Shown piece by piece: positions 13,716 through 41,323 of a stretch of 64,000 bases of DNA. Position 1 is the first letter of the stretch. Every line of letters begins with the position of its first letter. The notes under the pieces were generated by a model that worked only from the letters and a program-made list of their open reading frames with translations, did no database searches and was not told where the DNA came from. The position numbers were made by a program, and so were the translations under genes. Source of the DNA: an uncultured Planctomycetaceae bacterium (GTDB taxonomy: Bacteria > Planctomycetota > Phycisphaerae > SM23-33). The stretch is from the NCBI GenBank assembly GCA_964583095.1, contig CAZOVB010000003.1:562-64561 (forward strand), read 5' to 3'.

Positions 13716-15431
13716 ATGGCTAGAAAGCAACGCAAACGTATCGGTGAAATCCTGCAGGAATGGGGTGTGGTCTCCAAATCCGGGATCACCGAGGCCCTAG
13801 ACTACGCCCAACGCGAGTATGTTCGCCTGGGCGACGCCTTTATTTCCCTGGGCCTGGCTGAAGAGTCCGACGTGACCAAGGCCTTGGCCCTCCAGTACGA
13901 CATGGAATACGTCGACCTGGACTCCAACGCCGTCCAGCCTGGGCAGATGGATCTGATCCCCGACGATCTGATCCGCAAACACATGATCCTGCCTCTTTCC
14001 AAGGAAGACGGCAAGCTCAAGGTAGCCATCACCGACCCGCTGGATCTGGAAACCCTGGACATGCTCCGTTTCCGTCTCAATGCGGATCTGGAGCCTTGCC
14101 TGGCGCCCAAGAGCCGGATTCGGGCGATCATCGACGAGTTCGTCCGCATGGACCTCTCGATTGACCAGACGGTCTCGGAACTGGAGGATTCCTCCGGAGA
14201 AGGCCTGATGGCCCGCGCCCAGAGCAGCGACCTGGGCCTGGACGAAGATGCCGCCCCCATCGTCCGCCTGGTGACCATGCTTATCAACGAAGGTGTGAAG
14301 ATGCGCGCTTCGGATATTCACATCGAGCCGATGGCCAACCGTGTCCGGGTCCGCTACCGCGTCGACGGCGTCTGCCTCGAACGCGACAACGTCCCCAAGC
14401 GCATGCAGGGGCCGGTGATCAACCGACTCAAGATTCTCTCCAACATGGACCTGGCAGAGAAACGCCTGCCCCAGGATGGGAGAATCAAGATGCGGGTGGC
14501 CAACTCGGACATCGACTTCCGTGTTTCGGCTCTTCCCAGTTACCACGGCGAGAGCATGGTCCTCCGAATCCTGCGGCCTGAAAGCGCCCGAATCGGCATT
14601 CAGGCCCTGGGCTTCGAGGACGATGACTACGCCCGCTTCCTGCGGATCATCCAGCGGCCCAACGGCGTGTTCCTCGTGACCGGTCCGACCGGCTCGGGCA
14701 AGACGACCACGCTCTATTCGGCGCTGAATGAGTTGAACAAGCCCGACACGAAAATCATCACCGCCGAGGACCCGGTGGAGTACAATTTCGTTGGAATTAA
14801 CCAAGTACAGGTTAATGAACAGATCGGTTTATCATTTGCTTCGATCCTCCGTTCAATGCTTCGTCAGGCACCGAACGTCATTCTCGTTGGCGAGATTCGT
14901 GACTCAGAGGTTGCTGAAGTGGCAATTCAGGCCGCCCTTACTGGACACTTGGTCTTCAGTACACTTCATACCAACGATGCATGCTCGGCTGTGACCCGTC
15001 TGATCGACATGGGTGTTAAGCCCTTCCTGGTCGCCAGCAGCATCCAGGCGGTGATGGCCCAGCGGCTTATCCGTGTCATCTGCGAGGACTGCAAAGAACC
15101 CTACCCCGAGCCGGATCGCCAACTCCTGCGGCTGCTGGAGTTCAGCGACGACGAGATCGATAATACAACCTTTTATCAGGGCAAAGGTTGCAACCGTTGT
15201 GGGGGGACCGGATACCGAGGCCGACTCGGCATCTTCGAGTTGATGGAATTCGATAATACACTGCGTGAGCTCGCCTTCCAGAGAGCCCCCGTCGGGGAGA
15301 TCCGCAAGGCCGCCCGAAGCGGTGGAATGCTGTCCCTGCTTGATGACGGAAAACGCAAGATCCGGGGGGGAATTACCACTCCCGAGGAGTTGGTCCGCGT
15401 GACCCAGGCCGAGGCCCTGCTCGAAGACTGA
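13716..15431 (+). CDS. type II secretion / type IV pilus assembly ATPase (GspE/PilB family), copy 1
   Basis: N-terminal T2SSE_N-like domain, Walker A GPTGSGKTTT, Asp box, Walker B and the tetracysteine CxxC...CxxC motif (CEDCKEP…CNRCGGTG). Confidence 0.9.
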   Translation: MARKQRKRIGEILQEWGVVSKSGITEALDYAQREYVRLGDAFISLGLAEESDVTKALALQYDMEYVDLDSNAVQPGQMDLIPDDLIRKHMILPLSKEDGKLKVAITDPLDLETLDMLRFRLNADLEPCLAPKSRIRAIIDEFVRMDLSIDQTVSELEDSSGEGLMARAQSSDLGLDEDAAPIVRLVTMLINEGVKMRASDIHIEPMANRVRVRYRVDGVCLERDNVPKRMQGPVINRLKILSNMDLAEKRLPQDGRIKMRVANSDIDFRVSALPSYHGESMVLRILRPESARIGIQALGFEDDDYARFLRIIQRPNGVFLVTGPTGSGKTTTLYSALNELNKPDTKIITAEDPVEYNFVGINQVQVNEQIGLSFASILRSMLRQAPNVILVGEIRDSEVAEVAIQAALTGHLVFSTLHTNDACSAVTRLIDMGVKPFLVASSIQAVMAQRLIRVICEDCKEPYPEPDRQLLRLLEFSDDEIDNTTFYQGKGCNRCGGTGYRGRLGIFELMEFDNTLRELAFQRAPVGEIRKAARSGGMLSLLDDGKRKIRGGITTPEELVRVTQAEALLED

Positions 15432-15694
15432 CCTTTTTTGACCTCCGGACCCCGGAGTTACACAAGGATCTGTTAACAATAGATTTATGGAGTTTTCACG
15501 CCGAGTTTCTCCGCAATGCCACTGGTCCTGAGCTGAAGAATCAGCGAATAATGACACCGCGAAAGGACACCGAACCATGGCTTTGCGAGGCGGAACCATC
15601 GGCCACGAACCCCAGACGCCCGAGGCGGGCCCCGGGCCCGATACGGACCGTTTGACCCACAGTCACCCCCTTGCTTTGAAGTGAAAGGATCGCC

Positions 15695-16855
15695 GTGGCC
15701 AAGAACATCCACATTGATCGTCTGCTGGAAACCTGCATTCGGCGGGGAGCCAGCGACCTGCATCTGGCCGTGGGACGCCCCCCCACGTTGCGACTCCACG
15801 GCAGGATGCGTCCCCTCCAGACCAAAGTCCTGGAGCCGGAGGATACCGTTGCCCTGATGAAGTCCATCACCCCCGAACGATGCCAGCAGGAACTGCAGGA
15901 ACAGGGAGGCACGGACTTCGGTTTCGAATACGGCGACGCCGGACGTTTCCGAACCGCGGTATTCATGCAGAAGGGAAGCGTCTCGATGGTCCTTCGTCTG
16001 ATTCCCTCCAAGATCTTCACCTTCGAGGAAATCGGCCTGCCCCCCATCGTCAAGACGCTCTGCCGCAGGCCGCGGGGTCTGTTCCTGGTCACCGGCCCGA
16101 CCGGCTCGGGAAAAACCACCACGCTGGCCACCATGCTGCATTACATCAATCAGCATTTCGACAAGCACATCGTGACCGTCGAAGACCCCATCGAGTACTA
16201 CCACTCCCATGGCAAGAGCATTGTCAACCAGCGGGAAGTGGGCGTGGACGTTCCCAGCTTCGATGAGGGCCTGCGACGCGTGCTGCGACAGGATCCGGAC
16301 GTCATCCTCGTCGGCGAGCTTCGTGACCTGGAAACCACCCAGGCGGCCATCCGGGCCGCAGAAACAGGCCACCTCGTCTTTGGCACCCTGCACACCACTA
16401 CCGCTGCCCGAACCATCACCCGCCTGATCGACCAGTTCCCCGTCGACCAGCAGGAACAGGTTCGCGTGCAGGTCTCCGAGTCCCTGATCGCCGTGCTCTG
16501 TCAGGCCCTGATGCCCCGGGTCGACGCCAAGGGCATGATCGCGGCCTTCGAGTTTCTCGTCATCACCAACGCCATCGCCCACCTGATTCGCGAAAACAAG
16601 ATTTTCCGTATTCCCTCGGAGATCCAGACCGGCAAGAAGATGGGTATGCAGTTGCTCGATGAGCACCTCTTCAGTCACTTCCGCCAAGGCAAGATCGCCG
16701 AAGAAGACGCCGTTGACCGCAGCCAGAACCCCGGAGAACTCCAGGAGAAGATCGACATGTTCAAATCCGGCAAGCTTGCCAACGTGGACCAGACTGCGTT
16801 CGAGAGAGCCATCGCCGAGCAAGAAGAATCCGAAGAACAAGCCGTGAGGAAATAA
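15695..16855 (+). CDS. pilT: twitching-motility retraction ATPase PilT
   Basis: MAKNIHIDRLLETCIRRGASDLHL..., GPTGSGKTTTLATMLHYIN, and the [17 protein letters not shown] PilT signature. Confidence 0.85.
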   Translation: MAKNIHIDRLLETCIRRGASDLHLAVGRPPTLRLHGRMRPLQTKVLEPEDTVALMKSITPERCQQELQEQGGTDFGFEYGDAGRFRTAVFMQKGSVSMVLRLIPSKIFTFEEIGLPPIVKTLCRRPRGLFLVTGPTGSGKTTTLATMLHYINQHFDKHIVTVEDPIEYYHSHGKSIVNQREVGVDVPSFDEGLRRVLRQDPDVILVGELRDLETTQAAIRAAETGHLVFGTLHTTTAARTITRLIDQFPVDQQEQVRVQVSESLIAVLCQALMPRVDAKGMIAAFEFLVITNAIAHLIRENKIFRIPSEIQTGKKMGMQLLDEHLFSHFRQGKIAEEDAVDRSQNPGELQEKIDMFKSGKLANVDQTAFERAIAEQEESEEQAVRK

Positions 16856-16858
16856 CCC

Positions 16859-18598
16859 ATGGCCGAATACCAGGTAGACCAACTAAAAGGCAGACCCATC
16901 GGACGCATTCTGGTCAAGATGGGCAAGATCACCAGAGACCAGGTCCACGAGGCTCTTGCAGCTCAGCGGGAGCGAGGAGGCCCGTTGGGCCAGATCCTCG
17001 TGGACCTCGGCTATGTCGACGGCCCCACGGTGTCGCTGGCCCTGGGCTTCCAGGTCGGAATGGAATACATTGACCTGGAACAGCAGGACGTTCCCGCCTC
17101 GGTCATCCAGCGTATCCCGCCGGAAATGGCCAAGACCTACAAGCTGGTTCCCGTCGAGTACGACCAGGAAAGCAACCACCTGACCATCGCGGTCGCCTCG
17201 GCGGACAACTTCCACGCCGTAGACGACCTTCGCACGCTGATGGGCTTTTCCGTTACCGCCCGGATCACCTACGAGGAGCAACTGGACCGCTCCCTGGCCA
17301 AGTACTACGGGGCCGAAGAAGAATCCATGGGCGATATCCTCAACCAGATCGCCGTGGATGAGGACCTGGCCGCCCTGGAAAATCGCGGCGAGAGTATCGA
17401 CCTGGACGCGATTCAGCAGGCCGCAGACTCCAACCCCGTCCGCCGACTGGTCAATATGGTCCTGCTCGAGGCGATCCGCAACCGGGCCTCGGACATCCAC
17501 TTCGAGCCGTTCGAGGATGAGTTCAAGATGCGCTACCGCATCGACGGCCACCTCTACGAGATGATGCCTCCCCCGACGCACATCGCCACGGCCATTGCCT
17601 CCCGCGTCAAGGTCATGGCCAATTTGGACATCGCCGAGCGCCGTATGCCCCAGGACGGCCGAATCGAACTGCTGGTCAACGGCCAGCCGGTCGACCTGCG
17701 TATCTCCGTGCTGCCTACCAGCTTTGGTGAGAGCGTGGTGATGCGTGTTCTGGACCGCTCGAATGTGAACCTGGACCTGGAACGCCTGGGGCTGCGCGAC
17801 GATGACCTGCGGATCTTCCGCCAGTTGATCAACCGTCCTCACGGGATCGTGATCGTCACCGGCCCGACCGGCTCGGGAAAAACCACCACGCTGTATTCCG
17901 CCCTGAGCGAGTTGAACAGTACCGAGGTCAAGATCCTCACCAGCGAAGACCCGGTGGAATACGACATCGACGGGTTGATCCAGGTCCAGACGCGATCCGA
18001 TATCGGCCTGACCTTCGCCCGGTGCCTCCGAAGCTTTCTGCGACAGGACCCGGATATTGTTCTGGTCGGCGAGATTCGCGACCTGGAAACCGCCGAAATC
18101 GCCGTCCAGGCCTCTCTGACCGGCCACCTGGTCTTCACGACCATCCATACCAACGACGCCCCCTCCACCATCGCACGTGTTCTGGATCTGGGCCTGGAGC
18201 CCTACCAGTTGACCGCCACGCTGGAGGGTGTCGTCGCCCAGCGCCTGGTGCGGACCATCTGCACCCGCTGCAAAGAGCCCATGACCCCCACCGATGAGCA
18301 GTTGATGGAACTGGGCCTGACCCAAGAGGATGTCAAAGGTCGCAGCTTCTTCCAGGGCGCCGGATGCGAGTTCTGCCGGGGCACCGGATATTCGGGTCGA
18401 AACGCCATTTACGAAATCATGCTGCTGGATGATCACATTCGCGACCTGATCATGCAGCACAGTTCCACCGCCCGGATTCGCGAAGCCGCCCGCAAACGCG
18501 GGATGCGCAGTCTGCGTGAAAGCGGAACGCTGGCCATCTTCGATGGCAAAACCACCGTAGAAGAAGTCGTCTCCCAGACCATCTTCGATGAAACCTGA
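16859..18598 (+). CDS. type II secretion / type IV pilus assembly ATPase (GspE/PilB family), copy 2
   Basis: A second full-length GspE-like protein: T2SSE_N, GPTGSGKTTTLYSAL, and the CTRCKEP…CEFCRGTG Zn motif. Confidence 0.9.
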   Translation: MAEYQVDQLKGRPIGRILVKMGKITRDQVHEALAAQRERGGPLGQILVDLGYVDGPTVSLALGFQVGMEYIDLEQQDVPASVIQRIPPEMAKTYKLVPVEYDQESNHLTIAVASADNFHAVDDLRTLMGFSVTARITYEEQLDRSLAKYYGAEEESMGDILNQIAVDEDLAALENRGESIDLDAIQQAADSNPVRRLVNMVLLEAIRNRASDIHFEPFEDEFKMRYRIDGHLYEMMPPPTHIATAIASRVKVMANLDIAERRMPQDGRIELLVNGQPVDLRISVLPTSFGESVVMRVLDRSNVNLDLERLGLRDDDLRIFRQLINRPHGIVIVTGPTGSGKTTTLYSALSELNSTEVKILTSEDPVEYDIDGLIQVQTRSDIGLTFARCLRSFLRQDPDIVLVGEIRDLETAEIAVQASLTGHLVFTTIHTNDAPSTIARVLDLGLEPYQLTATLEGVVAQRLVRTICTRCKEPMTPTDEQLMELGLTQEDVKGRSFFQGAGCEFCRGTGYSGRNAIYEIMLLDDHIRDLIMQHSSTARIREAARKRGMRSLRESGTLAIFDGKTTVEEVVSQTIFDET

Positions 18599-18620
18599 TC
18601 GACCCGTGCAGGAGTAATAC

Positions 18621-19907
18621 ATGCCAACCTTCCAATACGAAGCCATGAACAAGGTAGGCCAGCCCGTCAAGGGCAAGATCGAGGCCGCCAACCAGGAAGA
18701 AGCTACCGCGCGCATCCGCTCGATGGGCAACTTCCCCACCAAGATCAAACAGCAGGCCGGGAAACGCAAACCGGACCAGAAGAAAGATTCCCAGCCCGGT
18801 GGCGGCGCCGGCGGAGGCGGCGGCGGGAGCCAGCAGAAACGCCGCACCGCCGGCAAGGTCTCCAAGAAACTCCTGACACAGTTCACACGCCAGCTCTCTA
18901 CGCTGGTCGATGCCGGCCTGCCCATCCTGCGATCGCTTCGTATCCTCGAACAGCAGCAGAAACCCGGCATGCTTCGCCTGGCCATCCGCATTGTGGCCGA
19001 GGACGTCGAAGGCGGAGCCACCCTCTCCGAGGCAATGGCCAGACACCCCAAGGCGTTCGACCGACTGTATGTCAACATGGTCCGCGCAGGCGAGCTGGGC
19101 GGCGTGCTGGATCTGATCCTCCAGCGCCTTTCGGACTTCATGGAACGCAGCCAGGCCCTGCGACGCAAGATCATCGGGGCGATGATCTACCCCGCCGCAG
19201 TGATCAGCTTCGCGGTCCTGATCGTCACGGGCCTGCTGGTGTTTGTCGTGCCGCAGTTCAAGGACATCTTCGAAGGCATGCAGATCCCCCTGCCCGGCGT
19301 GACCATCGCCCTGCTGAACTTCAGCGACTGGATGGTCCGCATCGGCTGGATCGTCCTGCTTGGCTCGCCCCTGGCGGTCTACGCACTGATCAAACTCCTG
19401 AGGACCAGCGACGGGGGCCGATATGCCGTGGACAAGTTCAAACTCAAAATTCCGCTGTTCGGATTGATCGCCTCCAAAGGCTCGATCGCACGTTTTTCCC
19501 GGACACTGGGAACGCTGCTCTCTGCCGGTGTCCCGATCCTCGAGGCCATCAACATCACCCGCGAAACCTCCGGAAACGAGGTGTATGTCCGGGCGCTGGG
19601 CCGCGTGCATGACGGCATCCGCGAGGGTGAAAGCTTCGCCGAGCCGCTGCGACAGGCCAAAATCGTCGACCCGATGGTCGTCAATATGATCGACGTCGGC
19701 GAAGAAACCGGTGAACTGGACCAGATGCTCACCAAGGTCGCCGACACGTACGACGAAGAGGTCGAGGTTCTCGTCGGGGCCATGACCAGCGTCATGGAGC
19801 CGGTTCTGATCATCTTCCTGGGTGTGTTGGTAGGCTTCATCGTCATCGCGCTGTTCTCCCCGATGATCGCCCTGCTCAAGAGTGCCCAGGACCGAGCCGG
19901 AGGCTGA
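18621..19907 (+). CDS. inner-membrane platform protein GspF/PilC
   Basis: Two T2SSF repeats (…LSTLVDAGLPILRSLRIL…, …LGTLLSAGVPILEAINIT…). It carries an N-terminal poly-Gly insert, QPGGGAGGGGGGSQQKRR. Confidence 0.85.
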   Translation: MPTFQYEAMNKVGQPVKGKIEAANQEEATARIRSMGNFPTKIKQQAGKRKPDQKKDSQPGGGAGGGGGGSQQKRRTAGKVSKKLLTQFTRQLSTLVDAGLPILRSLRILEQQQKPGMLRLAIRIVAEDVEGGATLSEAMARHPKAFDRLYVNMVRAGELGGVLDLILQRLSDFMERSQALRRKIIGAMIYPAAVISFAVLIVTGLLVFVVPQFKDIFEGMQIPLPGVTIALLNFSDWMVRIGWIVLLGSPLAVYALIKLLRTSDGGRYAVDKFKLKIPLFGLIASKGSIARFSRTLGTLLSAGVPILEAINITRETSGNEVYVRALGRVHDGIREGESFAEPLRQAKIVDPMVVNMIDVGEETGELDQMLTKVADTYDEEVEVLVGAMTSVMEPVLIIFLGVLVGFIVIALFSPMIALLKSAQDRAGG

Positions 19908-19920
19908 GAAAGGAAACCAG

Positions 19921-20619
19921 ATGCACGCTTTGCCAGGCATCAGAAGAGAAAAACCAGGCTGCTTCCCTGCAGGCAAGAGAGCATTTACCCTGCTGGAACT
20001 GCTGATTGTCATCGCCATCCTTGCCCTGCTGGCCGGAATCATCGTCCCCAGCCTGATGAAAGTCCGCCAGGCCGGATCGCGCGTCACCATCGAAGCCCGC
20101 ATCGCGATGCTAAGCCGCGCTGCCCAGCAGTACAAGCAGCTCAACCAGTACTACCCCGGACAGCGGTATCTTCGTGACGGCTACAACGGAGGGGTCTCCT
20201 GGGTCAAGACCGGCAGCCAGATGCTGGCCCTGTCGATCTTCTCCCCCGAAGACGACGCATCGGAGTTCCCCGCAGACAGCCGCTACTGCTCCCAATTTGA
20301 GAAGGAACTGCTCTTCACCTTCGAAAACGGCGGGACGCAGTACCAGAACACGCTTGCCGACAGCTCCAACGAGACCGCGCCGATCTGCTACTACCCCTGC
20401 GACCCGAGAAGCCGGGACCAGAGCGCCCAGAAGCAGTACAGCAAGGCGTTCGACTGGAACAAGGCCTACACAGGCTCGACTGCGGCGGAGTTCTACGCCT
20501 TCATTACCGACGGAGGCGATGGGAGCGACACCCCCCGCCGGAGCAACGAATTCCTGCTGATCGCTCCCGGGCCCGACGGAGAGTTTTTCACCTCCGACGA
20601 CATCCACAACATGAACTGA
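19921..20619 (+). CDS. GspG-like pseudopilin (prepilin-type N-terminal methylation domain), paralog 1
   Basis: RBS aaaggaaacc. The N-terminus has the prepilin motif G/FTLLELLIVIAILALLAGI, with a Glu at +5. The C-terminus ...LLIAPGPDGEFFTSDDIHN has the GspG-like xGxDGxxxxxDDI signature. Confidence 0.75.
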   Translation: MHALPGIRREKPGCFPAGKRAFTLLELLIVIAILALLAGIIVPSLMKVRQAGSRVTIEARIAMLSRAAQQYKQLNQYYPGQRYLRDGYNGGVSWVKTGSQMLALSIFSPEDDASEFPADSRYCSQFEKELLFTFENGGTQYQNTLADSSNETAPICYYPCDPRSRDQSAQKQYSKAFDWNKAYTGSTAAEFYAFITDGGDGSDTPRRSNEFLLIAPGPDGEFFTSDDIHNMN

Positions 20620-20635
20620 CCGGAAGGACCCAGAC

Positions 20636-21310
20636 GTGATCCCGCGAAATACAAGACAACCCGCCGGAGCTGAGAGGGGCTTTACGCTCCTGGAAGTTCT
20701 GATCGTGATCGCGATTATCTCGATTCTGGTCGTGATCGCCGTGCCCAGCATCTACAAAGCCAGGCAGCAGGCCGACCTGGCCCGATCCCGGGCGAGAATG
20801 ATCTCCCTGGAAGATGGCCTGTCGGCATTTCACGCCTTCGACGGGCGCAACTATTTTCCCGGACAGGACCGCAGGGGCCAGGACGCCCTCCGAAACGGCA
20901 TGACCGGATCTGAACTGCTGGCCCGGGCCATGTGGACCCCGCGGGAGGAAGACTATCTGGACAGCGACACCCCCGACGGATACCCCTCCGGCGTCTATTC
21001 CGGCCATTCCACGGACTACGAAATGGAATACGAGGGCGTTGCCCCCCTGCCCTCCGACGAGTTCGGTTCCGACCCCATGCCCATCCTGTACTACCCTGCC
21101 CGGCCGGGAACGATCGGCAAGAATGCCGACGTCCAGTACGAATACAACCACAACAAAACCATCACGCCCGATGCAAAGCGCAGCGATTTCTACGACTTCA
21201 TCACCTTCCAGGACAGCCGGCCTTACGCGCCGGGCAAGTTCCTCCTGATCTCCGCGGGAATCGACCGACGCTACTTCACCCAAGACGACCTGACCAACTT
21301 CGAAAGATAA
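20636..21310 (+). CDS. GspG-like pseudopilin, paralog 2
   Basis: RGFTLLEVLIVIAIISILVVIAVPSI, and a C-terminus LLISAGIDRRYFTQDDLTNF. Confidence 0.75.
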   Translation: MIPRNTRQPAGAERGFTLLEVLIVIAIISILVVIAVPSIYKARQQADLARSRARMISLEDGLSAFHAFDGRNYFPGQDRRGQDALRNGMTGSELLARAMWTPREEDYLDSDTPDGYPSGVYSGHSTDYEMEYEGVAPLPSDEFGSDPMPILYYPARPGTIGKNADVQYEYNHNKTITPDAKRSDFYDFITFQDSRPYAPGKFLLISAGIDRRYFTQDDLTNFER

Positions 21311-21314
21311 CGAT

Positions 21315-22010
21315 ATGTTCCGACATCCAGACAACCAGGTCCGCCACCGGCCAGGGGTACGTGGACGCCCCTCGGGCTTCACCCTCTTGGAGATGCTGAT
21401 CGTAATCGCGATTCTGGGCCTGCTGGTCTCCATCGCGGTTCCGGCCCTTCTGGCCGTCCGGGAGCGTGCGAAGATCTCCGTCTCGCAGCAGCGCATCGAC
21501 AGCATCGCCGCCGGCGTCGAGCAGTACCACAGCGAACACGGCGATTACCCGCCCGAAAGCATCGACGGTCTCAACAGCGCCCGGACGCTCTGCCTGTACA
21601 TGACCGGCTGGGCCAAAGACCGGAACCACGACGGACAGGCGGCAACCGGGGCATTGGACTTTCACGAAGACGACGGCAACGATGGCTTGGGCTGGCGCAG
21701 GCCCGACTCCCCCCGTGGACGCGTCTACGGACCCTACAAGGGCCTCGACGACGCCCCCCGATCCGACGGGAGCACGCCCACCCTCCTGGACGAGTTCGGC
21801 AATACGATCTGGTATGCGCGTTACGACGCCGCCTCGGGCAAGATGGTAATCAAAGACGATCCCGGTCTGCCCGGCAAATACTTCCAGGATGAAGACGACA
21901 AGTATTACCGGAAGGACTTCGGGGTCTTCTCTGCCGGGCCCGACGGCGACTTCCAGCGATATGCCTCCGACAGCGGATCCGACGACCTGAGCAACTTCTT
22001 ACCCCAGTGA
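21315..22010 (+). CDS. GspG-like pseudopilin, paralog 3
   Basis: SGFTLLEMLIVIAILGLLVSIAVPAL, and a C-terminus FSAGPDGDF...SDDLSNF. Confidence 0.75.
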   Translation: MFRHPDNQVRHRPGVRGRPSGFTLLEMLIVIAILGLLVSIAVPALLAVRERAKISVSQQRIDSIAAGVEQYHSEHGDYPPESIDGLNSARTLCLYMTGWAKDRNHDGQAATGALDFHEDDGNDGLGWRRPDSPRGRVYGPYKGLDDAPRSDGSTPTLLDEFGNTIWYARYDAASGKMVIKDDPGLPGKYFQDEDDKYYRKDFGVFSAGPDGDFQRYASDSGSDDLSNFLPQ

Positions 22011-22525
22011 GCGAATCGATGGCGAGCAAACCCAACAAGACATTCCGAGCCCGGCGCGGCTTTACCCTCATCGAGCTGCTGGTGGTCATGGTGATCCTGG
22101 CGATCATCATCGCCCTGGCCGTGGCGATCGGAGGCTACATCAACGAGGAATCCTCCCGAAAACGGACACAGACGGCCCAGGAGATCCTGAAGACGGCCGT
22201 GGACATGTATGAAAAGGCCTACGACGGCCGGGCCCCCAGCGATGAGTGGGATTCCTCCTGGTCGGTGACCAAGCCCGGCGACGAAGCCGAGGCCACCACC
22301 GTTGCGCTGCTCCAGAGGCTCAAGGAAGTGCCCAAGAGCTGGAAGATCGTGGAGAAACTCGAAGAGGAGATCTTCGAAGACGCCCAGACCCCCCTGACCG
22401 ACGGCTTCGGCTACCCGATGAAGTACGTCGACGACGGCGGACGGGGCAAGGCGCCGGTACTGATCTCCACGGGGCCCGATGGGAAATTCGGTACAGAAGA
22501 CGACATTCGATCGGACAAACAATGA
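22007..22525 (+). CDS. GspG-like major pseudopilin, paralog 4
   Basis: RGFTLIELLVVMVILAIIIALAV, and a C-terminus GYPMKYVDDG...VLISTGPDGKFGTEDDIRSDK, typical of GspG. The start overlaps the previous stop by 4 nt. Confidence 0.8.
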   Translation: MSESMASKPNKTFRARRGFTLIELLVVMVILAIIIALAVAIGGYINEESSRKRTQTAQEILKTAVDMYEKAYDGRAPSDEWDSSWSVTKPGDEAEATTVALLQRLKEVPKSWKIVEKLEEEIFEDAQTPLTDGFGYPMKYVDDGGRGKAPVLISTGPDGKFGTEDDIRSDKQ

Positions 22526-23271
22526 CAAGCCTGAAAACAACCCGGATGCACCGCAAGAGCAACCTTGGCTTCACGCTGATCGAGATCCTCGTGGTTCTCG
22601 GCGTCATTGCGATCCTCGTCGGGATCACCCTGCCGGGAATCATCGATATCTTCAGTTCCGGATCCGAAGGCCAGGCCTACAGCGTCACCAACTCGCTGCT
22701 TCGCACGGCCCGGGCCTATGCGATCGAGAACAGCGTCTACACGGCCGTGCACTTCCAGCCCGCCGACCGCGACCTGGAGGAATTCAGCGACCGCTGGTCC
22801 ACGTTCGCCTCGATCATGGCCTGGAACGAGGAAGACGGCTACTTCCAGATGCCCGCGGGGTTCGAGCCGGTGGCCATTCCCGGCGGCATGGCCGTCGGAG
22901 CCGTCGACGACCGCTTCTTCAATTCCGACGGCTCGATCAAGAACATCACCCAGCCCGAAAAGCTCGTCACCGCGACGGTGATCTTCTCCCCGGAGGGCAA
23001 GGTCGTCCGCTGGGCGCCGACCTCCAACGGCCACGCGAAATTCGACCTCGCCGACGGCGCCCTGTTCGACAAGGACGATGACCTGCGGATCTGGGACAAC
23101 GACAACAGCACCTGGAATATGCATACCCTCGGTGTTACCGCGGTGACATTCTTCCCCCTCCAGGAGTACATGAGCCTTACCAACACATCATCGCGAACGT
23201 ACTTCCTCCAGGACAAGGCCGCCTTTACCGGAATCAACCTCTACACCGGACAACTGTTCCCAAGGAAGTGA
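22522..23271 (+). CDS. minor pseudopilin (prepilin-type N-terminal domain)
   Basis: The ATG sits at 22522 within ATGA, overlapping the GspG stop. The N-terminus is ...LGFTLIEILVVLGVIAILVGITLPGII. Confidence 0.65.
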   Translation: MTSLKTTRMHRKSNLGFTLIEILVVLGVIAILVGITLPGIIDIFSSGSEGQAYSVTNSLLRTARAYAIENSVYTAVHFQPADRDLEEFSDRWSTFASIMAWNEEDGYFQMPAGFEPVAIPGGMAVGAVDDRFFNSDGSIKNITQPEKLVTATVIFSPEGKVVRWAPTSNGHAKFDLADGALFDKDDDLRIWDNDNSTWNMHTLGVTAVTFFPLQEYMSLTNTSSRTYFLQDKAAFTGINLYTGQLFPRK

Positions 23272-23276
23272 TTCAT

Positions 23277-24107
23277 ATGCAAACTCCATTTGAACATCAC
23301 GTTACACCCGACCGGCGGGGCTTTACGCTGGTGGAAACGATGTTTGCCATCGTGATCATGGGCATTGCACTGACCATGGTAGCCGGCGTGGTCCCGGTCG
23401 GCATCGAGCTGAGCCGGTCCAGCGTGGGCGCGGTGGAATCCAAGGTCGGCTCCCGCAACGCTGTGACCTTCATTCGGTCCATGCTCACCCGCCGGCACAT
23501 GCTTGACCAGGGGGTGACGCGGCAGTTCGTGGAAATCGACGTCGACTCGCTGTTGACCACAGACGTCTATATCGATGATCCCGGCGACTACGAAACCACC
23601 AACCTGACACACCCGCTTGCCCGCAAGTCCGACGATGACCTGGTCGAGGACGAACGAAAGGGCTTCAGACTCCTGGCCCGGAGGATGGATTCCGAGCCGG
23701 ACCCCAGCCTCGCCCGCAACGACTACCTCCTGGCCATCTTCTACTACCTGGAGAACGAGATCTTCGAAGAAGATCCGGACGAAGACGGCAATGAGATGGC
23801 CCTGAAACCCATCGGCATCGACTCGGTCGACCACGATGACCGGCAAGTGAGCATCTCCAACCAGTCGCAGGCCAAGTTCTTCCAGCCGGGCAGTATCGTA
23901 CTTGGTCAGAACGGCTCCTGGGCGCGGATCGAAAGCATCGACGGCAAGACGATTCAGCTCGACCGCGCCCTGAGCGGCTCCCAGTCGGCCATCGAGCCTC
24001 TCTGGACCATCTACGAACACGACGGGGACGCCGACGCCCCCCTGCCGGTCATGAGCCCGGGACTGGGGCTTCTCACCGTCCGCACCGCATTGAGGAACGC
24101 ACCATGA
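23277..24107 (+). CDS. minor pseudopilin (prepilin-type N-terminal domain)
   Basis: The RBS AGGAAG lies 9 nt upstream of the ATG at 23277. The N-terminus is RRGFTLVETMFAIVIMGIALTMVAGVV. Confidence 0.6.
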   Translation: MQTPFEHHVTPDRRGFTLVETMFAIVIMGIALTMVAGVVPVGIELSRSSVGAVESKVGSRNAVTFIRSMLTRRHMLDQGVTRQFVEIDVDSLLTTDVYIDDPGDYETTNLTHPLARKSDDDLVEDERKGFRLLARRMDSEPDPSLARNDYLLAIFYYLENEIFEEDPDEDGNEMALKPIGIDSVDHDDRQVSISNQSQAKFFQPGSIVLGQNGSWARIESIDGKTIQLDRALSGSQSAIEPLWTIYEHDGDADAPLPVMSPGLGLLTVRTALRNAP

Positions 24108-25024
24108 GACACACACCCACAATGAGAACGCGACGGGGCATGACGCTGATCGAACTGCTTGTCACCGTGGTGGTTATCGCCGCGATCCTCTACGTGTTCA
24201 ACATGGTCCTCACCAGCAGTCAGCAGTTCGTGACGACCACCCAGAGCCGCTCGCGTGCCAACAGTGCGGCCGAGGCCATCGCGAGGACGATCCGCTCGGA
24301 CCTGGAACGGATATCGCGCCAGGGATTCCTGTTGATCTGGCACAAACCCTCTGAAGGCTATCGAATGTGCTTCACCCAGGCCGGCAGGTTCAACTCCACC
24401 CTGGCAGATAAAGGCACCCCCGCCTACGCGACGCGCGCAACCGGCGCGGTGGTCGCCTACGGCATGGCCGACAACACGCATCCGGCCTATCCCGGAAAGG
24501 TCCTGCTCCGCAAGCAGCTTCTGCTGGTCGGAACCAGCATGTCCGATCCGCTGCCTGCCGATGCGGATGGCGGCGACCCCGACAGCGGTTCGGATCCGTT
24601 TTTCGGACCCACCAACCCGTCGATCAGCCCCACTCTGGGCACCATCCAGTTCACGCGGGAATCGAAGCTGCTTGACCAGATCCTGGGCGGTCCAAGTGAT
24701 GAATCCTTCATGGAGTCCGTGCCCGAATCGATCCGGGTTCCTGCAAACAACAACCTGAATGAGGTCAGGGACCTCTGGGAAGTCCTGAGCCCGGGGATCG
24801 AACTCGTCGGCGTCCGTTACGCGATGCCCGACCCGCATACAGGAAAGCCCAAGTGGCATGCGATCGACCTGAGCAAGAGCTACCAGAATTTCTGGACGCA
24901 CGAGGATCCCTCCGACTGGCCTTTGGCGCTACACCTGATATTCCGTCTTAACGATCCGGACCTGCCCGAGGAGTTGCAGAACGAATCGACGCTTTACCAC
25001 GTGGTCGCCCCGATCGGCCAGTAA
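24104..25024 (+). CDS. minor pseudopilin (prepilin-type N-terminal domain)
   Basis: RRGMTLIELLVTVVVIAAILYVFNMV. The start overlaps the upstream stop by 4 nt. Confidence 0.6.
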   Translation: MRHTPTMRTRRGMTLIELLVTVVVIAAILYVFNMVLTSSQQFVTTTQSRSRANSAAEAIARTIRSDLERISRQGFLLIWHKPSEGYRMCFTQAGRFNSTLADKGTPAYATRATGAVVAYGMADNTHPAYPGKVLLRKQLLLVGTSMSDPLPADADGGDPDSGSDPFFGPTNPSISPTLGTIQFTRESKLLDQILGGPSDESFMESVPESIRVPANNNLNEVRDLWEVLSPGIELVGVRYAMPDPHTGKPKWHAIDLSKSYQNFWTHEDPSDWPLALHLIFRLNDPDLPEELQNESTLYHVVAPIGQ

Positions 25025-25042
25025 ACTTTGCAGAGGTGCACG

Positions 25043-27730
25043 ATGAAACGCACACATAATCAACGAGGTTCGGTCCTGCTGATGGTGGTTGGTCTTCTGA
25101 CCATCCTCTACATGCTCCTGGGCACCTTCCTGATCGTAGCCCGCTATGATGAGTCCGAGGCCCTGAGCCTGGCCACCGAAGCCCAGAACGATCCCGGCGC
25201 ATCGGGTGTGGTCGGCCTGATCAAGCAGCGACTGGCCGATGACCTTCATACCGATGCCAACAATCCCTACGCGTCCCTGACGCCGGATCCGCAGGGGTGG
25301 AAGGGCTTCATCGACTACCCGGCCGAGGATGTCGACGATCACCTGGCCACCAGCTACGACCCAGCTCTGTTCCGTTGGAAGCACCTGACCAACCTCGTGG
25401 GACTGGATTCAGCCAAGGTCACCAACGTCGTTTACAATCAGGACGTCACCTCCCCGGACTACGAGTATTTCCTCGACCTCGACGGCGACAAGCATGAAGA
25501 CTCCTATCGTTTCGAGACCGGCATGGTGGATCCCAAGGGCAGGGCCATCTACGGATTCGTCCGCATCCTGGATACGTCCTCGTTTTTGAACATGACGATC
25601 GGCAACGGACCCGACTGCCTCTACTATGCCCCCGGATCTCTGGAGGCTAACTGGACTGCCTCCGGCGGAAATGGCGTGGTGGACAAGTGGAATGATTGGA
25701 GCAATATCGGGTTGGTCACAACGATGCTCACCACACCGTCCGATATTGACGTAGCCAAGCTACTGGATTCTGCCGTCCTTGGCGCCTTCCATTACAGTCG
25801 CATCGACACCTCCACTCCAACGACGAGCAACACCTACTGGTACGAGTTCGCCCAGCATCCTCACAGGCCCGGTCCCTATATGGGTCTACCCGAGCCCTCG
25901 GACCCTTACAGGCCCTTCGACCCCGGGGAGGAGATCTTCCTGCGGTACACGGGCCCTTCGTCCGACAACGCCGGGCTCCTGCCCCAGTTGATCATCGACT
26001 CCAATCCCAGCGACCGGATCGATCGCAAACGCATATTCACTACGACCAGCGTCTCGCGGCAGCTTCTTCGCCGCCCGAAGACGGGCTCTGCCGATCCCAA
26101 CGACGACCGCATCAAGCGGATGCTGCTCTCCCGGAATTTCGAGCCCGACCAATGGCTCTATGAGCAGTTGGTCGCCGCCGGGGCCGGTAAAAAAGAGGCC
26201 GCCCACTTCCTGGCCAACCTCTGGGCGTACACGTCCCCCGACCAGGCCCACAACAACGCCTTTGCCTTCAGTCCCTCCGGCGAGAGTTTTAAGGTCTACG
26301 GGGCCGTCGAGCAGTTGGTCATCACCGATGCCTACGTCTACTACAAGCCCCAATCGACTCCCGGCACGGACGATTCCGGCTGGGCGGTAGCCATTGAACT
26401 GATGAACCCCTGCTGGAAAAGCGTCAACATCCAGAACTACGAGGTCGAAGGCTTCGACCTGGGCACCCTGGGTCCGACCGCGGTAGCCCCTGGCAACTCG
26501 ATCGTCCTCTGGACGGTCGGCAACGGCCCCGGTGCGACCACGCCGCTGGACTCCTCGGATTTCAAGTTCCCGCCCGAGTACGAAGTACCCGAACTGGCCA
26601 CGCTGGCCAAGGATGCCGGAACGATCGAGATCACCCGCGACGTCGGCACCGAGAGCGATATCCCCGTCGACAAGGTCTCGGCCTTTGATCTGGGGTACAC
26701 CAAACCCGCCACGGGGGAAGCTGCCGTCAGCGCCCTGGCCCTGCGAGACGACGACTGGGGACCCTACAACCCCGCCGCTGGACAATACGGCGGGCGCCAG
26801 CGCGCCCTGGTGGCGGAGTACCAGACATCTGCTCCGGGAATGAACTTCAGCAGCGCCGGGGGCAATGGGCTGGCCGCCTCGTCTCTTTCCAACGTGAACC
26901 AGGGCTTTGGCCTCCACCGCCTCGGCGGGGTTCCCTACAACCTGGGCGAGCTGGCGCGGGTCTTCACCGTCGGGCCCGACGACAGCGGCAACGACCTGCC
27001 CCACCAGCTCAAGAGCCTGGCCGGCAGCGTCTCACGCGGAAAGCTCAACTTCCATGCCAATGCCGCAAGCGGGGACGGCAACTACCCCACGCTGCCCTGG
27101 GCGACGATTCTGCCCGAGCTGGTGGACGTGCTGCCCGGCGACAGGACCAGAGGGCCGCTTGACCCTGCTGATGGCCACGTCGAGCTCCGACGCGTCTACG
27201 GGCGGGTGAACATCAACACCGCCTCGCGTGAAGTCCTGGCCGCCCTGCCCTGGCCGGACGAACTGCTCTACCGATCGGCTCCGCTGGTCATCGATGCGAC
27301 CGAGAGAGCTCGAATCGCCGAGTACATCCAGTGCTACCGCGACGGTGAGCAAGTCAGCGGGGGGCCCGATTACTCCAACCGCGCAGCGGCCAGCGGAATC
27401 GGCGGGCTTCGCGACGGCGTGACCCACAACGGCTTCCTTACCCCGGGCGAACTGGCCATTCCCTTAGGCGACTATGTAGCCTCCCGGCTTTCGCCGGCCG
27501 AGAGGAAGCGGGCGGATTACGCCTCCATGTTCGGCCGCTACGGCCTGTACCGGGCGGTAAGCAACCTGGTCACCGTCCAGAGCGACACGTACGTGGTGCT
27601 CCTGGCCCTGCAGATCAAAGACAGCCGGGGCCGGCCCAAGACGTGGCGATACATGGCCTTGCTCGACAGGAGCATCGTGGGCAAGACCGGTCAGCAGCCG
27701 GCCGTGCTGATGTTCACCAAGCTGGAGTAG
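25043..27730 (+). CDS. giant GspK-like minor pseudopilin (about 895 aa)
   Basis: The RBS GAGGTG precedes the ATG at 25043. The N-terminus QRGSVLLMVVGLLTILYMLLGTFLIVAR is GspK-like. The C-terminal VYGRVNINTASREVLAALP resembles the GspK helix-hairpin-helix segment. The long Pro/Gly/Asp-rich middle region is unusual for GspK. Confidence 0.5.
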   Translation: MKRTHNQRGSVLLMVVGLLTILYMLLGTFLIVARYDESEALSLATEAQNDPGASGVVGLIKQRLADDLHTDANNPYASLTPDPQGWKGFIDYPAEDVDDHLATSYDPALFRWKHLTNLVGLDSAKVTNVVYNQDVTSPDYEYFLDLDGDKHEDSYRFETGMVDPKGRAIYGFVRILDTSSFLNMTIGNGPDCLYYAPGSLEANWTASGGNGVVDKWNDWSNIGLVTTMLTTPSDIDVAKLLDSAVLGAFHYSRIDTSTPTTSNTYWYEFAQHPHRPGPYMGLPEPSDPYRPFDPGEEIFLRYTGPSSDNAGLLPQLIIDSNPSDRIDRKRIFTTTSVSRQLLRRPKTGSADPNDDRIKRMLLSRNFEPDQWLYEQLVAAGAGKKEAAHFLANLWAYTSPDQAHNNAFAFSPSGESFKVYGAVEQLVITDAYVYYKPQSTPGTDDSGWAVAIELMNPCWKSVNIQNYEVEGFDLGTLGPTAVAPGNSIVLWTVGNGPGATTPLDSSDFKFPPEYEVPELATLAKDAGTIEITRDVGTESDIPVDKVSAFDLGYTKPATGEAAVSALALRDDDWGPYNPAAGQYGGRQRALVAEYQTSAPGMNFSSAGGNGLAASSLSNVNQGFGLHRLGGVPYNLGELARVFTVGPDDSGNDLPHQLKSLAGSVSRGKLNFHANAASGDGNYPTLPWATILPELVDVLPGDRTRGPLDPADGHVELRRVYGRVNINTASREVLAALPWPDELLYRSAPLVIDATERARIAEYIQCYRDGEQVSGGPDYSNRAAASGIGGLRDGVTHNGFLTPGELAIPLGDYVASRLSPAERKRADYASMFGRYGLYRAVSNLVTVQSDTYVVLLALQIKDSRGRPKTWRYMALLDRSIVGKTGQQPAVLMFTKLE

Positions 27731-27770: not shown

Positions 27771-28670
27771 TCAGGCGTCGGTCTCGATCGCCCCTGCCCC
27801 CGTGAGCAGGGCGCAGACGACTTGGGCCATCGTCAGCAGATCCAGGACATTGTGGTGGAGTACATCGGCGATCTGCCTCGCGTTGCCGCTTTCTACAAAA
27901 CTGTGATAGGCATCGGGGATCTGCGCTCCGGGAATGTCGCCCCTTCGCAGGCGCCCGCAGAGGCACCGCTCCAGTGTCTGGAGTTTGCAGTTGGGCAGGC
28001 CCCCCTTCCATCGCCTCCGCGAAGCGTGGAGCAGGTCCAGATGCGGCGGATCCCGCAAGGGCAACTCCACTGCGTGAAAGGCCGAGCGTTCCCGGATCAT
28101 GTTCAGGTCGAACGACTTGCCGTTGAAGGTCACCAGCACCCCGGCCTGGTCGTATCGGTCGGCAAAAGCCTGAAGGATCGCCCCCTCCTCGCTGTAGTCC
28201 CGGGCGAGGAACTGATCGAAGACCAGGGCTCCATCCTCCCACTGCATCAGCCCCACCAGGAAGATCGGACAGCCCGAGAACCCGCAGGTCTCCAGGTCCA
28301 TGAAGAGCAGATCGGCGCAGTCGGCGTTTGCCACGTGGCACAGCTCGGCCGAGGCTTCGAGTTCATCAAAGCGGTGGCGCGCCCCCTTGAGCACCGAGCT
28401 GTACTGCTTCTCGATGCTGCCACCCTCGGCGTCGATCTTCTGCAGCTCGCGGCGGACCCGCCAGAAGGCCCCCTCGCCCAGGGGCGTTGTCAGGCGATGT
28501 TCGATCCCTTCGCACGCCTGGGCCAGCTCCAGCGGAGCCAGCGGATCTTTCGGGGCCTTCGCGCTTGACCCGACACCCTTGAGCACATCCTGCGCTGCGG
28601 GCAGGTCCCCCCGGGCGATGCGACGGGTGAGCATCTCGAGCTTGCGTTTTCGGCTTGGGGACATGGCCAT
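27771..28670 (-). CDS. RNase-H-like 3'-5' exonuclease-fold protein (YprB/RNase_H_2-like)
   Basis: The exonuclease motif I is ...LLFMDLETCGFSG... (DxE). The start is taken at MAMSPSRK, with the RBS GGTGAGAG upstream; the ORF extends a further 28 codons upstream to 28754. Confidence 0.5.
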   Translation of the reverse strand: MAMSPSRKRKLEMLTRRIARGDLPAAQDVLKGVGSSAKAPKDPLAPLELAQACEGIEHRLTTPLGEGAFWRVRRELQKIDAEGGSIEKQYSSVLKGARHRFDELEASAELCHVANADCADLLFMDLETCGFSGCPIFLVGLMQWEDGALVFDQFLARDYSEEGAILQAFADRYDQAGVLVTFNGKSFDLNMIRERSAFHAVELPLRDPPHLDLLHASRRRWKGGLPNCKLQTLERCLCGRLRRGDIPGAQIPDAYHSFVESGNARQIADVLHHNVLDLLTMAQVVCALLTGAGAIETDA

Positions 28671-28832
28671 GGCTCTCACCTCTGATCCCCCCAGGTCGGG
28701 GACGGCGAACCGGGAGCCCGAATGCGAAGATCCGACAAAAGCGGATTGTACCATGTCGCCTGCCGGCGACCAAACAGATCCCTGATATAGCCCGGCAGAA
28801 GGTCAAATGGAGAGCTCTGGCTGGGATCGGGC

Positions 28833-29282
28833 TCAAAGCGCGGGTTCGGGATCGTCGGCAACGGCGAGACGCTCGACCTCCTCCAGGACACGGGGCAGGT
28901 CCAGGCAGCAGAGAAGCAGGTCCCCCCAGGTCGTGAGGCTCTCGACCAGCGGCTCGATGCGGGCGGGCAGTTGGCCCGACGGGATGTGCCTGTCCTCAGG
29001 CTCTGCCGCTACGACATCTCCCGTCCTGTCGACGAGAAGCCCGGCCTGGACCTCATCGCACTCCACAACCACCACCGCCCTGCGAGGCGAGTCGGTTTTC
29101 TCCAGGCCCATCATGCCCGACAAGTCCAACACGGGCAGAAGGCTGCCGCGCAGGTTCATCAGGCCCGAGATCACATCGCTGCATGGAGGAACGGGAGTCA
29201 ACGGGCCCGGACGCAGGATTTCCCGGACGTGGTGGACGCGCAACCCGAACCATTTGCTGCAGATACGCACCAGAAGCATGCC
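28833..29282 (-). CDS. CheW-like coupling protein
   Basis: ...[22 protein letters not shown]...[18 protein letters not shown]... matches the CheW domain consensus. The start is taken at the internal Met (MLLVR); the ORF continues upstream to 29366. Confidence 0.6.
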
Positions 29283-29627
29283 ATTGTCGGGCCGGATATC
29301 CCCGGGGGCGATCTGCCGGTTCGGCTGGGATCGCTGGATTCTTCTTTGCAAAGGCCTGGGACGCAATGGATTCTCCCGTTTAGGGCAAAATCGCTGCCTG
29401 CCAACAGAGTATTCTCATCGGTCATCCCGGGGGCCAACTTGTCCAGGAAGCCTGTTGAGCCGGCCGGCCCCGCAGGGCGCAAAGCTAGTCAAGTCGGGGG
29501 GTCTTTGGGACGATGTAAGGGCCGTATAGATGGAAATACTCCAAAGGGCACCGAGCTTCTGAGTATTGGCGTGGTCTCCCCCTGGCTTCGCAGTCTCGGA
29601 AGACAGGCACCGTCAAGGGGCACCACG

Positions 29628-32374
<2,747 letters not shown>

Positions 32375-32387
<13 letters not shown>

Positions 32388-34003
32388 TCGCCGAAGACGA
32401 CCGGATCTCGCGCCAGGCGCTGGATTCGCTGATGAAAAAATGGGGCTATGACACCGTCTGTGTCGAAGACGGACTGGCCGCCTGGGAAAGACTCCGCGCC
32501 CCCAATGCGCCCAGACTGGCCATCCTGGACTGGAACATGCCCGGCATGAGCGGGCTGGACGTCTGCAGGCACGTCCGCGAAGCCCTCTCGGGCTCCTATG
32601 CCTACCTGATCATGCTCACCGCGCGCGATCGCAAAGAGGACATCGCACAGGGGATCGAAGCAGGGGCCGATGATTACATCATCAAGCCCTTCGACGCAAA
32701 GGAGCTTCGGGCCAGAATCCGCGCAGCCGAGAGAATCCTCGATCTTCAGCAGGAACTGCTGGGGGTCCAGTCCTCCCTGCGGTCTTCCCAGGCGGAGCTT
32801 TCGGCCATCTTCACCAGCGCCCCCACGGCCATCCTGGTCATCGACAAGGACATCCTCGTTCGCAATGCCAATCCCGCGGCTACCCAACTGGCCAACCGAT
32901 CGCTTTCGGAGATGATCGGACGCAGGCCCGGCGACGCAATGGGGTGCGAACATGCCAGGAATCTCGGCTGCGGAAACTCGCCGGCCTGCGAGATGTGCAG
33001 GCTGCGAAGCATCGTCAGTGACCTGGTCGCCAATGGCTGTCCGCATCATCGCGGGGAGGCCTCCCTGCTGAGAAAAGAAGGCGCAAGCCTCAACCAGTAT
33101 TTCTTCCACGTGACGTCCTCACCCCTGCGGGTCGGCGGAGAAGAGATGGCCCTGCTGTGCCTGGAGGACATCACCCAGCGAAAGGCCGCCCAGCGCGAAC
33201 TGGAAATCCTCAACGAGACCCTCGAATCCCAGGTGCAGGATCGAACCGAGAAGGTCCAGCAACTTCTCAAGCAGAAGGACCAGTTCGTCAATCAGCTCGG
33301 GCACGACCTGAAAACCCCCTTAACGCCCCTGGTGGCCCTGCTTCCGATGCTCAGCAAACGCATCGAGGACCCCAAGTCCCAGGAGATCCTCACCGTGACG
33401 ATGGACAACGTCCGCTATATGCGGCGACTGGTCGAAAAGACCCTCAGCCTGGCCCGGCTGAACTCATCGGCCGTCCAGTTCGACATGGAACCGATCGATC
33501 TGCTCACCGAGTCGCGAAACATTGTCGCCTCGATGGGGCCCATCCTCACAGAGAATCAATTGCACGTGGAGAACAACATCACCGAGCCGACGGTCGTGTT
33601 GGCCGACCACATCCACCTGCGCGAGGTCTTCCACAATATCATCTCCAACGCAACCAAGCACACCCCGCCCGGCGGGACGATCACCCTCAGCGCCTTTGTC
33701 GGCGAGCAAGACATGATCCACGTGGCCATTACCGACACAGGCTGCGGGATGAACGCCGATCAACTCGATCGCATCTTCCTGGAGTTTCATAAGGCCGACG
33801 AATCGCGGCATGACCGGGGCAGCACGGGGCTGGGGCTTTCCATCTGTCAGTGTATCATCCAGCGCCATGGGGGGCGCATCTGGGCCACCAGTCCGGGGAT
33901 CGAAGAGGGAACCACCATCACCTTTACGCTGCCTCCCCCCCACAGGGCGGGGCAGGACCTTTCAGACACTCAGCAGCAACAGGCACAGGAGAACCAGACA
34001 TGA
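32375..34003 (+). CDS. response-regulator / histidine-kinase fusion (REC - PAS - HisKA - HATPase)
   Basis: Starts [14 protein letters not shown]...[12 protein letters not shown] (a receiver domain), overlapping the upstream stop by 13 nt. A PAS domain, the H-box (…[12 protein letters not shown]…) and the ATPase G-boxes (TGCGM…GLGLSICQ) follow. Confidence 0.8.
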
Positions 34004-34377: not shown

Positions 34378-34413
34378 CATCCCGCTCCCGCATCCAGATG
34401 GAAATCGATTGAT

Positions 34414-39434: not shown

Positions 39435-39750
39435 GGCCTGTTCCCTTGCCTCCCTCCGGGGGGGCAGAATGTCCACAATACCCGCCTGGGCACCGCGGAA
39501 CAAGCCGCGCTTTGGCCGGGCCGGCAGCGGGCGTCGAAAAATAGATTTTTCAGCAATACCCCCCGGGCCATTCCGTTATCTTGTAGGTAGGCCAAACGGC
39601 GGTCCCCCTGCGCCCGCAGGCGCCGTGCCCACATCCATGCAGAGAGAGAATCGCGGGACCGTTCGCGAGAGAGATTCCAGGCAGCACAGACAACCCTCAG
39701 CCTAGAGCCAAGCAAGGCTGTGGGGAAGATGTTCAGGAAAGGGAATCACC

Positions 39751-41313: not shown

Positions 41314-41323
41314 GAGGTGAAGC

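Follow-up and report, generated by a model that had tools for sequence, protein, structure and literature searches.

The DNA studied here is a 64,000-nucleotide stretch (the window) of contig CAZOVB010000003.1 from an uncultured Planctomycetaceae bacterium (assembly GCA_964583095.1), and all coordinates are those of the window. The gene at 25043-27730 on the forward strand is the last of a co-directional cluster encoding PilB, PilT, PilB2/GspE, PilC/GspF and seven prepilins. Its 895-aa product likely belongs to the GspK/PilK family of minor pilins, on the basis of profile-profile comparison, a missing Glu at position +5 (Glu+5), two NxN motifs, the C-terminal strands and gene order. A preliminary description, made from the sequence alone, had called it a GspK-like protein of about three times the canonical size. 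The open reading frame (ORF) is intact, stop codon included, in the ORF list and in translation, and with its homologues it confirms the frame given there. The longest uninterrupted frame extends from a TTG at 25028 to 27730 (900 aa); the ATG at 25043 is preceded by AGAGG and the homologues share this start position (MK..RGS). The gene and its product comprise the following features, in which AF2 denotes AlphaFold2, pLDDT the predicted local distance difference test score and LTD the lamin tail domain.

25043..27730, forward: GspK/PilK-family minor pilin (likely) with a giant insert, 895 aa (ORF, full-length homologues, hhalign against the canonical GspK profile)
25043..25243, forward: prepilin-like leader (MKRTHNQRG↓S) and long hydrophobic/amphipathic α1 helix, residues ~10-67 (sequence, AF2 helix 10-67, hhalign)
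25475..25501, forward: DLDGDKHED, residues 145-153, a conserved DxDxDxxxD loop with family consensus DTDGDGxxDA (alignment)
25502..25600, forward: two β-strands (154-162, 168-177) ending in the first GspK-type motif, IYGFVRILDTSSFLNMT (AF2 and hhalign)
25613..27184, forward: family-specific insert, residues ~191-714 (hhalign against GspK P 0.2, conservation, pLDDT)
26300..26750, forward: LTD-like β-sandwich, residues ~420-570 (Pfam LTD, AF2 strands 426-568)
27200..27565, forward: second GspK-type motif and helix-hairpin-helix (HhH)/SAM-like helical region, residues ~720-841, RVNINTASREVLAALPWP ... YIQCYRD ... GFLTPGELAIPL (Pfam T2SSK positions 1-14, hhalign to GspK 208-260, helices in the model of pLDDT 88)
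27566..27727, forward: three C-terminal β-strands (849-859, 865-875, 887-894), the terminal one being PAVLMFT (hhalign to GspK 263-310, AF2)

The N-terminus reads MKRTHNQRG↓SVLLMVVGLLTILYMLLGTFLIV, the arrow standing at the end of a short basic leader that closes with Gly and is followed by a hydrophobic helix. The residue at +5 is Met and not Glu (RG↓SVLLM, +1 to +5), the family consensus being RGSVLLMVVGLLT, and residues 5-70 align with GspK 3-68 at E 5e-7 (hhalign). The DxDxDxxxD loop lies just before the first β-hairpin; D145, D147 and D153 are invariant in the family alignment and D149 is conserved in at least 90 %. Judging from the known DxDxDG motif class and its spacing, this loop is possibly a candidate for calcium binding. 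A mini-profile alignment had paired it with the 'DWIDxD...GAED' of GspK, a pairing set aside because it breaks colinearity with the match found independently for the first NxN motif. That motif, with the family consensus YYAAVRVxDLSGxLNVNTA, aligns with GspK 92-109 (G-v---i-Dlq-cFNLNA) at P 7e-4, and the second occupies residues 720-737.

The canonical GspK set was gathered with E. coli K-12 GspK as the query, and an alignment of 34 diverse GspKs served as the hhalign target. The GspKs collected measure 286-393 aa (median 327) and the present family has a median of ~925 aa (150 best cluster representatives, most of them full length, together with the 17 first relatives), so the size given in the preliminary description was correct. 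With the insert removed (residues 1-190 joined to 715-895), the alignment covered GspK 3-289 over 248-249 columns with an hhalign probability of 96.5-97.2 % and E 8e-10 to 3.7e-11. Without the membrane helix E was 2e-7, and the C-terminal 181 aa alone gave 94.3 % and E 1.1e-7, their strands falling on GspK 263-310. The same queries run as a control against the column-reversed GspK alignment returned P 0.17-0.57. The piecewise matches are colinear, with α1 on GspK 3-68, the first NxN motif on 92-109, NINTA on 208-226 and the C-terminal strands on 263-310. Among the paired segments are 'YGRININTA..vL..LP' with 'l-INvNTa', 'YR' with 'R' and 'ITVnSDtFAv-I-VQ' with 'l-v-S-yF-l', and the last strand, 'PAVLLFT', pairs with the terminal strand of GspK. 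Because the match of the N-terminal helix is generic, the GspK-specific evidence consists of the missing Glu+5, the two NxN motifs and the C-terminal sheet. One family member matches Pfam PilX_N (E 0.003).

The insert (residues 191-714) has no similarity to GspK in hhalign (P 0.2) and, in comparison with GspK, about 430-525 residues would have been inserted within the region that forms the GspK α-domain. Its ~525 aa had been described as rich in Pro, Asp, Gly and Thr. The enrichment is weak (P 8.2, D 7.6, G 9.7 and T 6.7 % vs 6.8, 7.8, 9.2 and 6.4 % in the whole protein) and the insert is not low-complexity. It is as conserved as the pilin part, with 23 of the 44 invariant columns of the 18-sequence family alignment, and carries the signature motifs AAHFxANLWAY (386-396), IELxNP (451-456) and RDD (568-570). 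The preliminary description had proposed structure prediction and a structure search for this region. The prediction gave a helix pair followed by a β-sandwich, with pLDDT 80-95 over residues 360-570, and the search, made by Foldseek with the full AF2 model against the PDB, showed neither an LTD nor a GspK structure among the matches listed. Pfam LTD (PF00932) matches residues 434-493 of the 895-aa protein at E 0.021 (15.6 bits against a cutoff of 34.3). It matches 12 of the 18 members and, at E<=0.01, 23 of 47 (best 1.5e-10), those individually checked scoring 20-32 bits, under the gathering score. In the longer relatives additional modules stand directly ahead of the AAHF helices, namely Golvesin_C (11 of 47 members, up to E 5e-60), a galactose-binding-like domain (one member) and FG-GAP (one member). 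For this reason the region before the AAHF helices is pointed to as a putative hot spot for the swapping of binding modules.

A word-indexed search found 17 full-length relatives of 841-1158 aa and 27-58 % identity, all in Planctomycetota metagenome-assembled genomes (MAGs) or metagenomes; those with a source name are all 'hypothetical protein' and no curated model recognises them. When 1.84 billion cluster representatives were searched exhaustively with a profile, 3,396 matched at E<=1e-3 and 612 at E<=1e-30. These last, together with the full-length homologues, are the reason for considering the gene real. A scan of one genome per species yielded 25 loci, all from Phycisphaerae or Planctomycetota MAGs, and in at least 17 loci tblastn of the window proteins recovered the order PilB, PilT, PilB2, PilC, six or seven pilins and a gene of the 895-aa type. 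A minority of paralogues lies outside the PilB-PilT-PilC operon (L003, 10001-13477; L022, 10001-13408; L025, 728-3976). The members in L003 and L022 adjoin a single divergently oriented prepilin gene; that in L003 contains one or two Golvesin_C carbohydrate-binding-like modules and also lies amid polysaccharide-modification genes (sulfotransferase, pyruvyl transferase, NeuB). As far as sampled, the family is large, unnamed and confined to Planctomycetota, mostly Phycisphaerae. Literature searches on planctomycete minor pilins or LTD-containing pilins returned nothing specific, and one on Phycisphaerae pili found nothing; none of the papers searched describes the family.

The genes upstream of the 895-aa gene are as follows, MshEN being a domain that binds cyclic di-GMP (c-di-GMP).

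13716..19907, forward: motor and platform genes, from the PilB-like ATPase to PilC/GspF (Pfam, NCBIfam)
13716-15431, forward: PilB-like ATPase (Pfam, NCBIfam)
15695-16855, forward: PilT (TIGR01420, 445.5 bits against a cutoff of 319.1)
16859-18598, forward: PilB/GspE-like ATPase with an MshEN N-terminus (Pfam, NCBIfam)
18621-19907, forward: PilC/GspF (Pfam, NCBIfam)
19960..25024, forward: seven prepilin genes directly upstream of the 895-aa gene (Pfam N_methyl matches in 7/7, translations)

All seven upstream prepilins have the motif G↓(F/M)TLxE with Glu+5, and since none lacks this residue no upstream pilin is a PilK/GspK candidate. The pilin block directly abuts the 895-aa gene with no gene between, and the last three prepilin genes have stop/start overlaps. 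The start codon of the first is uncertain (longest ORF from 19882). The longest ORF of the fifth, 22246-23271, has 341 aa from a GTG at 22246 and overlaps the preceding gene by about 280 nt; its real start is probably near 22520 because the motif NLG↓FTLIE begins only at residue ~103. Between 13716 and 18598 the PilT gene has on either side a full-length assembly ATPase of the PilB type, each with an MshEN-type N-terminus, and the second of these passes the NCBIfam model of the c-di-GMP-binding motif (55 bits, cutoff 38). Related Phycisphaerae loci keep all three ATPases. A second ATPase of the PilT/PilU family (345 bits, cutoff 319) is encoded 10 kb downstream on the opposite strand (38262-39503, reverse).

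The preliminary description had implied a pseudopilus belonging to a type II secretion system (T2SS) as the host machine. Because a bona fide PilT is present and GspC, GspD, GspL and GspM were not found among the scanned ORFs (Pfam, selected large window ORFs up to about 55 kb, a non-exhaustive set), the machine looks like a PilT-containing, retractile type IV pilus-like system rather than a classical T2SS. We consider it likely that the 895-aa protein is the apical minor pilin (GspK/PilK/PilX family) of such a machine in a planctomycete of the Phycisphaerae type. PilK/GspK homologues are reported to lack Glu+5 invariably and to be the most apical subunit, and a C-terminal β-strand, given in trans by PilY1 in the type IVa pilus (T4aP) and in cis by GspK in the T2SS, licenses the priming complex at the tip to assemble; where PilY1 is missing, the PilK homologue often contains a large insertion, examples being CpaL, ComZ and V. 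cholerae PilX (PMC13533445). Pilins of modular build, on which grafted binding modules are displayed, are moreover widespread and an established concept (PMC8179133).

The missing Glu+5, the protein's own terminal strand, the absence of PilY1 and the big conserved module fit this published picture of PilK, and for that reason a role in tip priming and binding is proposed. The protein would supply its own terminal β-strand, as T2SS GspK does, and would form with the preceding minor pilins a complex that primes filament assembly; what was observed on such a complex is the gene order and the overlapping stop/start codons. It would then stay at the tip of a filament retractable by PilT and display the LTD-containing insert there, the most likely role of the insert being that of an adhesin module that binds a ligand or a surface; a large tip adhesin or cap is also what the preliminary description had suggested. 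A binding module at the tip is proposed because the insert is conserved, has an LTD-like β-sandwich and is joined in relatives by carbohydrate-binding-like modules. The insert may in this way replace a separate PilY1/PilC adhesin, which has no counterpart in the operon; the 895-aa protein itself has no PilY1-type Pfam match at E<=10. Complex formation, tip location and ligand binding by the insert are what we infer from the homology, architecture and synteny observed.

Several results weigh against the assignment to GspK/PilK and the role built on it. The NCBIfam hidden Markov model (HMM) for GspK (NF037980) reached 16 bits against a cutoff of 130, over residues 7-73 only. The preliminary description had staked the identification on a significant match to Pfam T2SSK (PF03934), and the match obtained (E 0.053, 14.3 bits against 24.2, the 14 residues 722-735 only) is not significant; in the family only 2 of 18 members match T2SSK at E<1. 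PF21687 (T2SSK_1st) gave no match at E<=10. The family profiles recovered no GspK from the PDB sequences (hmmsearch), the full-length one having no match and the C-terminal one a sole match to the HhH of EEPD1 (E 1.7). Structure prediction itself speaks for the assignment: in the full AF2 model (pLDDT 69, predicted template modelling score 0.73) a 58-residue α1 helix is followed by two strands and later by three C-terminal strands, and in the model of residues 620-895 (pLDDT 88) helices are followed by a three-strand sheet. Foldseek with either model listed no GspK/XcpX in its top 50 PDB matches (best E 0.24-0.28), the pilin module being discontinuous in sequence; the best matches were generic α+β folds (NTF2-like, cystatin). 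The hhalign comparison with the single E. coli GspK sequence was not significant (P 0.012), and the N-terminal helix resembles pilins in general: of the single GspG, GspH, GspI, GspJ and GspK sequences compared, E. coli GspG, GspJ and GspK scored alike. Moreover, secretin, PilMNOP and prepilin peptidase were not found among the window ORFs scanned with Pfam (the same non-exhaustive set of large ORFs up to about 55 kb), and it is by inference that tip location and adhesin function are reached. Since the HMM cutoffs were missed and Foldseek found no GspK, the protein is taken as a remote GspK/PilK-family relative and not as a member of the curated GspK equivalog. Thus the GspK match of the preliminary description holds as remote homology, by profile-profile comparison, the missing Glu+5, the NxN motifs, the C-terminal strands and gene order, and does not hold as curated HMM membership.

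Three other explanations have to be weighed against an apical minor pilin. The protein could be a ComEA-like, membrane-anchored DNA-binding protein and no pilin subunit at all, the N-terminal helix being a plain signal anchor and the NINTA HhH binding DNA, an alternative that the preliminary description had itself raised for the HhH-like segment. The EEPD1 match of the C-terminal profile and weak HHH_3 matches in 4 of 18 and 4 of 47 family members (best E 4.3e-7) would agree with this. However, HHH_3 does not discriminate between ComEA and GspK because it also matches bona fide canonical GspKs (among them P0229, P0244 and P0248), and the 895-aa protein has no HHH_3 match at E<=10. ComEA proteins are small, whereas the architecture found here is pilin-like and of far greater size. 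It is GspK and not ComEA that the C-terminal β-strands and the first NxN motif fit, and the missing Glu+5 and the position as last pilin gene across at least 17 loci also speak against a ComEA-like protein, which is very improbable. We give an equally small chance to a non-pilin tip adhesin of the PilY1/PilC type, or a large accessory protein, docking on a separate PilK-like minor pilin encoded upstream. The length of 895 aa resembles PilY1, the end of the minor-pilin block is the pilY1 site in T4aP operons, and the DxDxDxxxD loop recalls calcium-binding loops. Nevertheless the PilY1/PilC β-propeller (Pfam Neisseria_PilC) is unmatched even at E<=10, the N-terminus is pilin-like and not a Sec signal peptide, the C-terminus aligns with the GspK sheet, with helices and then a three-strand sheet predicted, and Glu+5 in 7/7 upstream pilins leaves no partner of the kind supposed.

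A true T2SS GspK, capping the non-retractile pseudopilus of a planctomycetal secretion system, would explain why the scores of the ATPase and platform proteins on the GspE/GspF models come close to those on the PilB/PilC models and why several operon pilins match GspG best, and its terminal strand would likewise be in cis (PMC13533445). Such a system is nonetheless very improbable, as a bona fide PilT lies within the operon and is kept in related loci, two PilB-type ATPases are present, and GspC, D, L and M were not found in the scan described above.

Downstream of the 895-aa gene, and tail-to-tail with it, lies an RNase_H_2-superfamily/PolB-exonuclease-like gene (27771-28754, reverse) which takes the same position in at least 8 related loci (53-66 % identity) and has no evident link to the pilus. 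Beyond it a signalling cluster (28971-34989) encodes a 1138-aa hybrid histidine kinase (PAS, two receiver domains, Hpt), a receiver-PAS-histidine kinase and a stand-alone CheB methylesterase domain protein. At 39751-42676 a DUF1501 gene comes after one for PSCyt2/PSD1 (DUF1549/DUF1553); the two genes form a typical planctomycetal pair, and their presence indicates that the window is from Planctomycetota.

Phycisphaerae (Planctomycetota) are abundant degraders of algal and particulate polysaccharides, and for the main PilT-containing pilus operon of this class the family offers a concrete candidate tip or receptor subunit. With its 3,396 cluster representatives it is widespread, and a family model would allow annotation pipelines to name such genes. 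The recent idea of a PilK/GspK with a large module where PilY1 is missing is extended by this family to another phylum and, within the GspK α-domain, to a new site of insertion. It is more speculative, and on balance unlikely, that the conserved insert and the HhH region, with the carbohydrate-binding-like modules swapped in at one hot spot in relatives, form a tip-displayed receptor for PilT-powered grappling of polysaccharide particles, algal surfaces or extracellular DNA. Tip adhesins of this sort, built in by fusion into the GspK α-domain and taking the place of PilY1 throughout a bacterial class, would be of a new kind.

Among known systems the 895-aa protein can be compared with GspK/XcpX (PDB 3CI0 and 5VTM; PF21687 and PF03934; NF037980), with which it shares a prepilin-like N-terminus without Glu+5, a β-hairpin ending in DxxxxφNφN, the φNφNTA helix-hairpin-helix motif and a C-terminal three-strand sheet with the terminal strand in cis. 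Moreover its gene is likewise the last pilin gene, after those of the ATPase and platform. It differs in having 895 aa instead of about 330 (the GspK α-domain comprising ~180 residues), with about 430-525 extra conserved residues that include the LTD-like β-sandwich, in missing all the curated GspK HMM cutoffs and in the lack of a GspK among the Foldseek matches listed, and in an operon with PilT where GspC/D/L/M were not found nearby. Its function would be GspK/PilK-like, yet in HMM score, size and T2SS context it falls outside the curated definition of GspK. PilK and PilX of T4aP, the partners of the PilC/PilY1 adhesins, are likewise apical minor pilins without Glu+5 in a PilB/PilT/PilC system, although they are small and it is PilY1 that gives them the last β-strand, in trans (PMC13533445), whereas here the strand and a large module are built in.

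ComZ of Thermus, CpaL/TadG of the Caulobacter Tad pili (~600 aa) and PilX of the V. cholerae competence pilus also combine a pilin-like part with a large inserted module in the absence of PilY1, and for ComZ, CpaL and V. cholerae PilX a tip location and an own C-terminal donor strand have been proposed (PMC13533445, PMC6561018). Compared by description, they have their insert after the sheet and before the donor strand, with folds of other kinds (a β-solenoid in ComZ), while the 895-aa protein keeps the GspK-type NxN/HhH motifs and has its insert between them. The modular type IV pilins (PilB and PilC of S. sanguinis, CofB of enterotoxigenic E. coli) similarly carry a functional module, often a lectin or adhesin, on a pilin (PMC8179133). 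Their module is C-terminal and joined by a linker to a canonical IPR012902 pilin, whereas in the 895-aa protein it is an internal insert in a GspK-type pilin without Glu+5.

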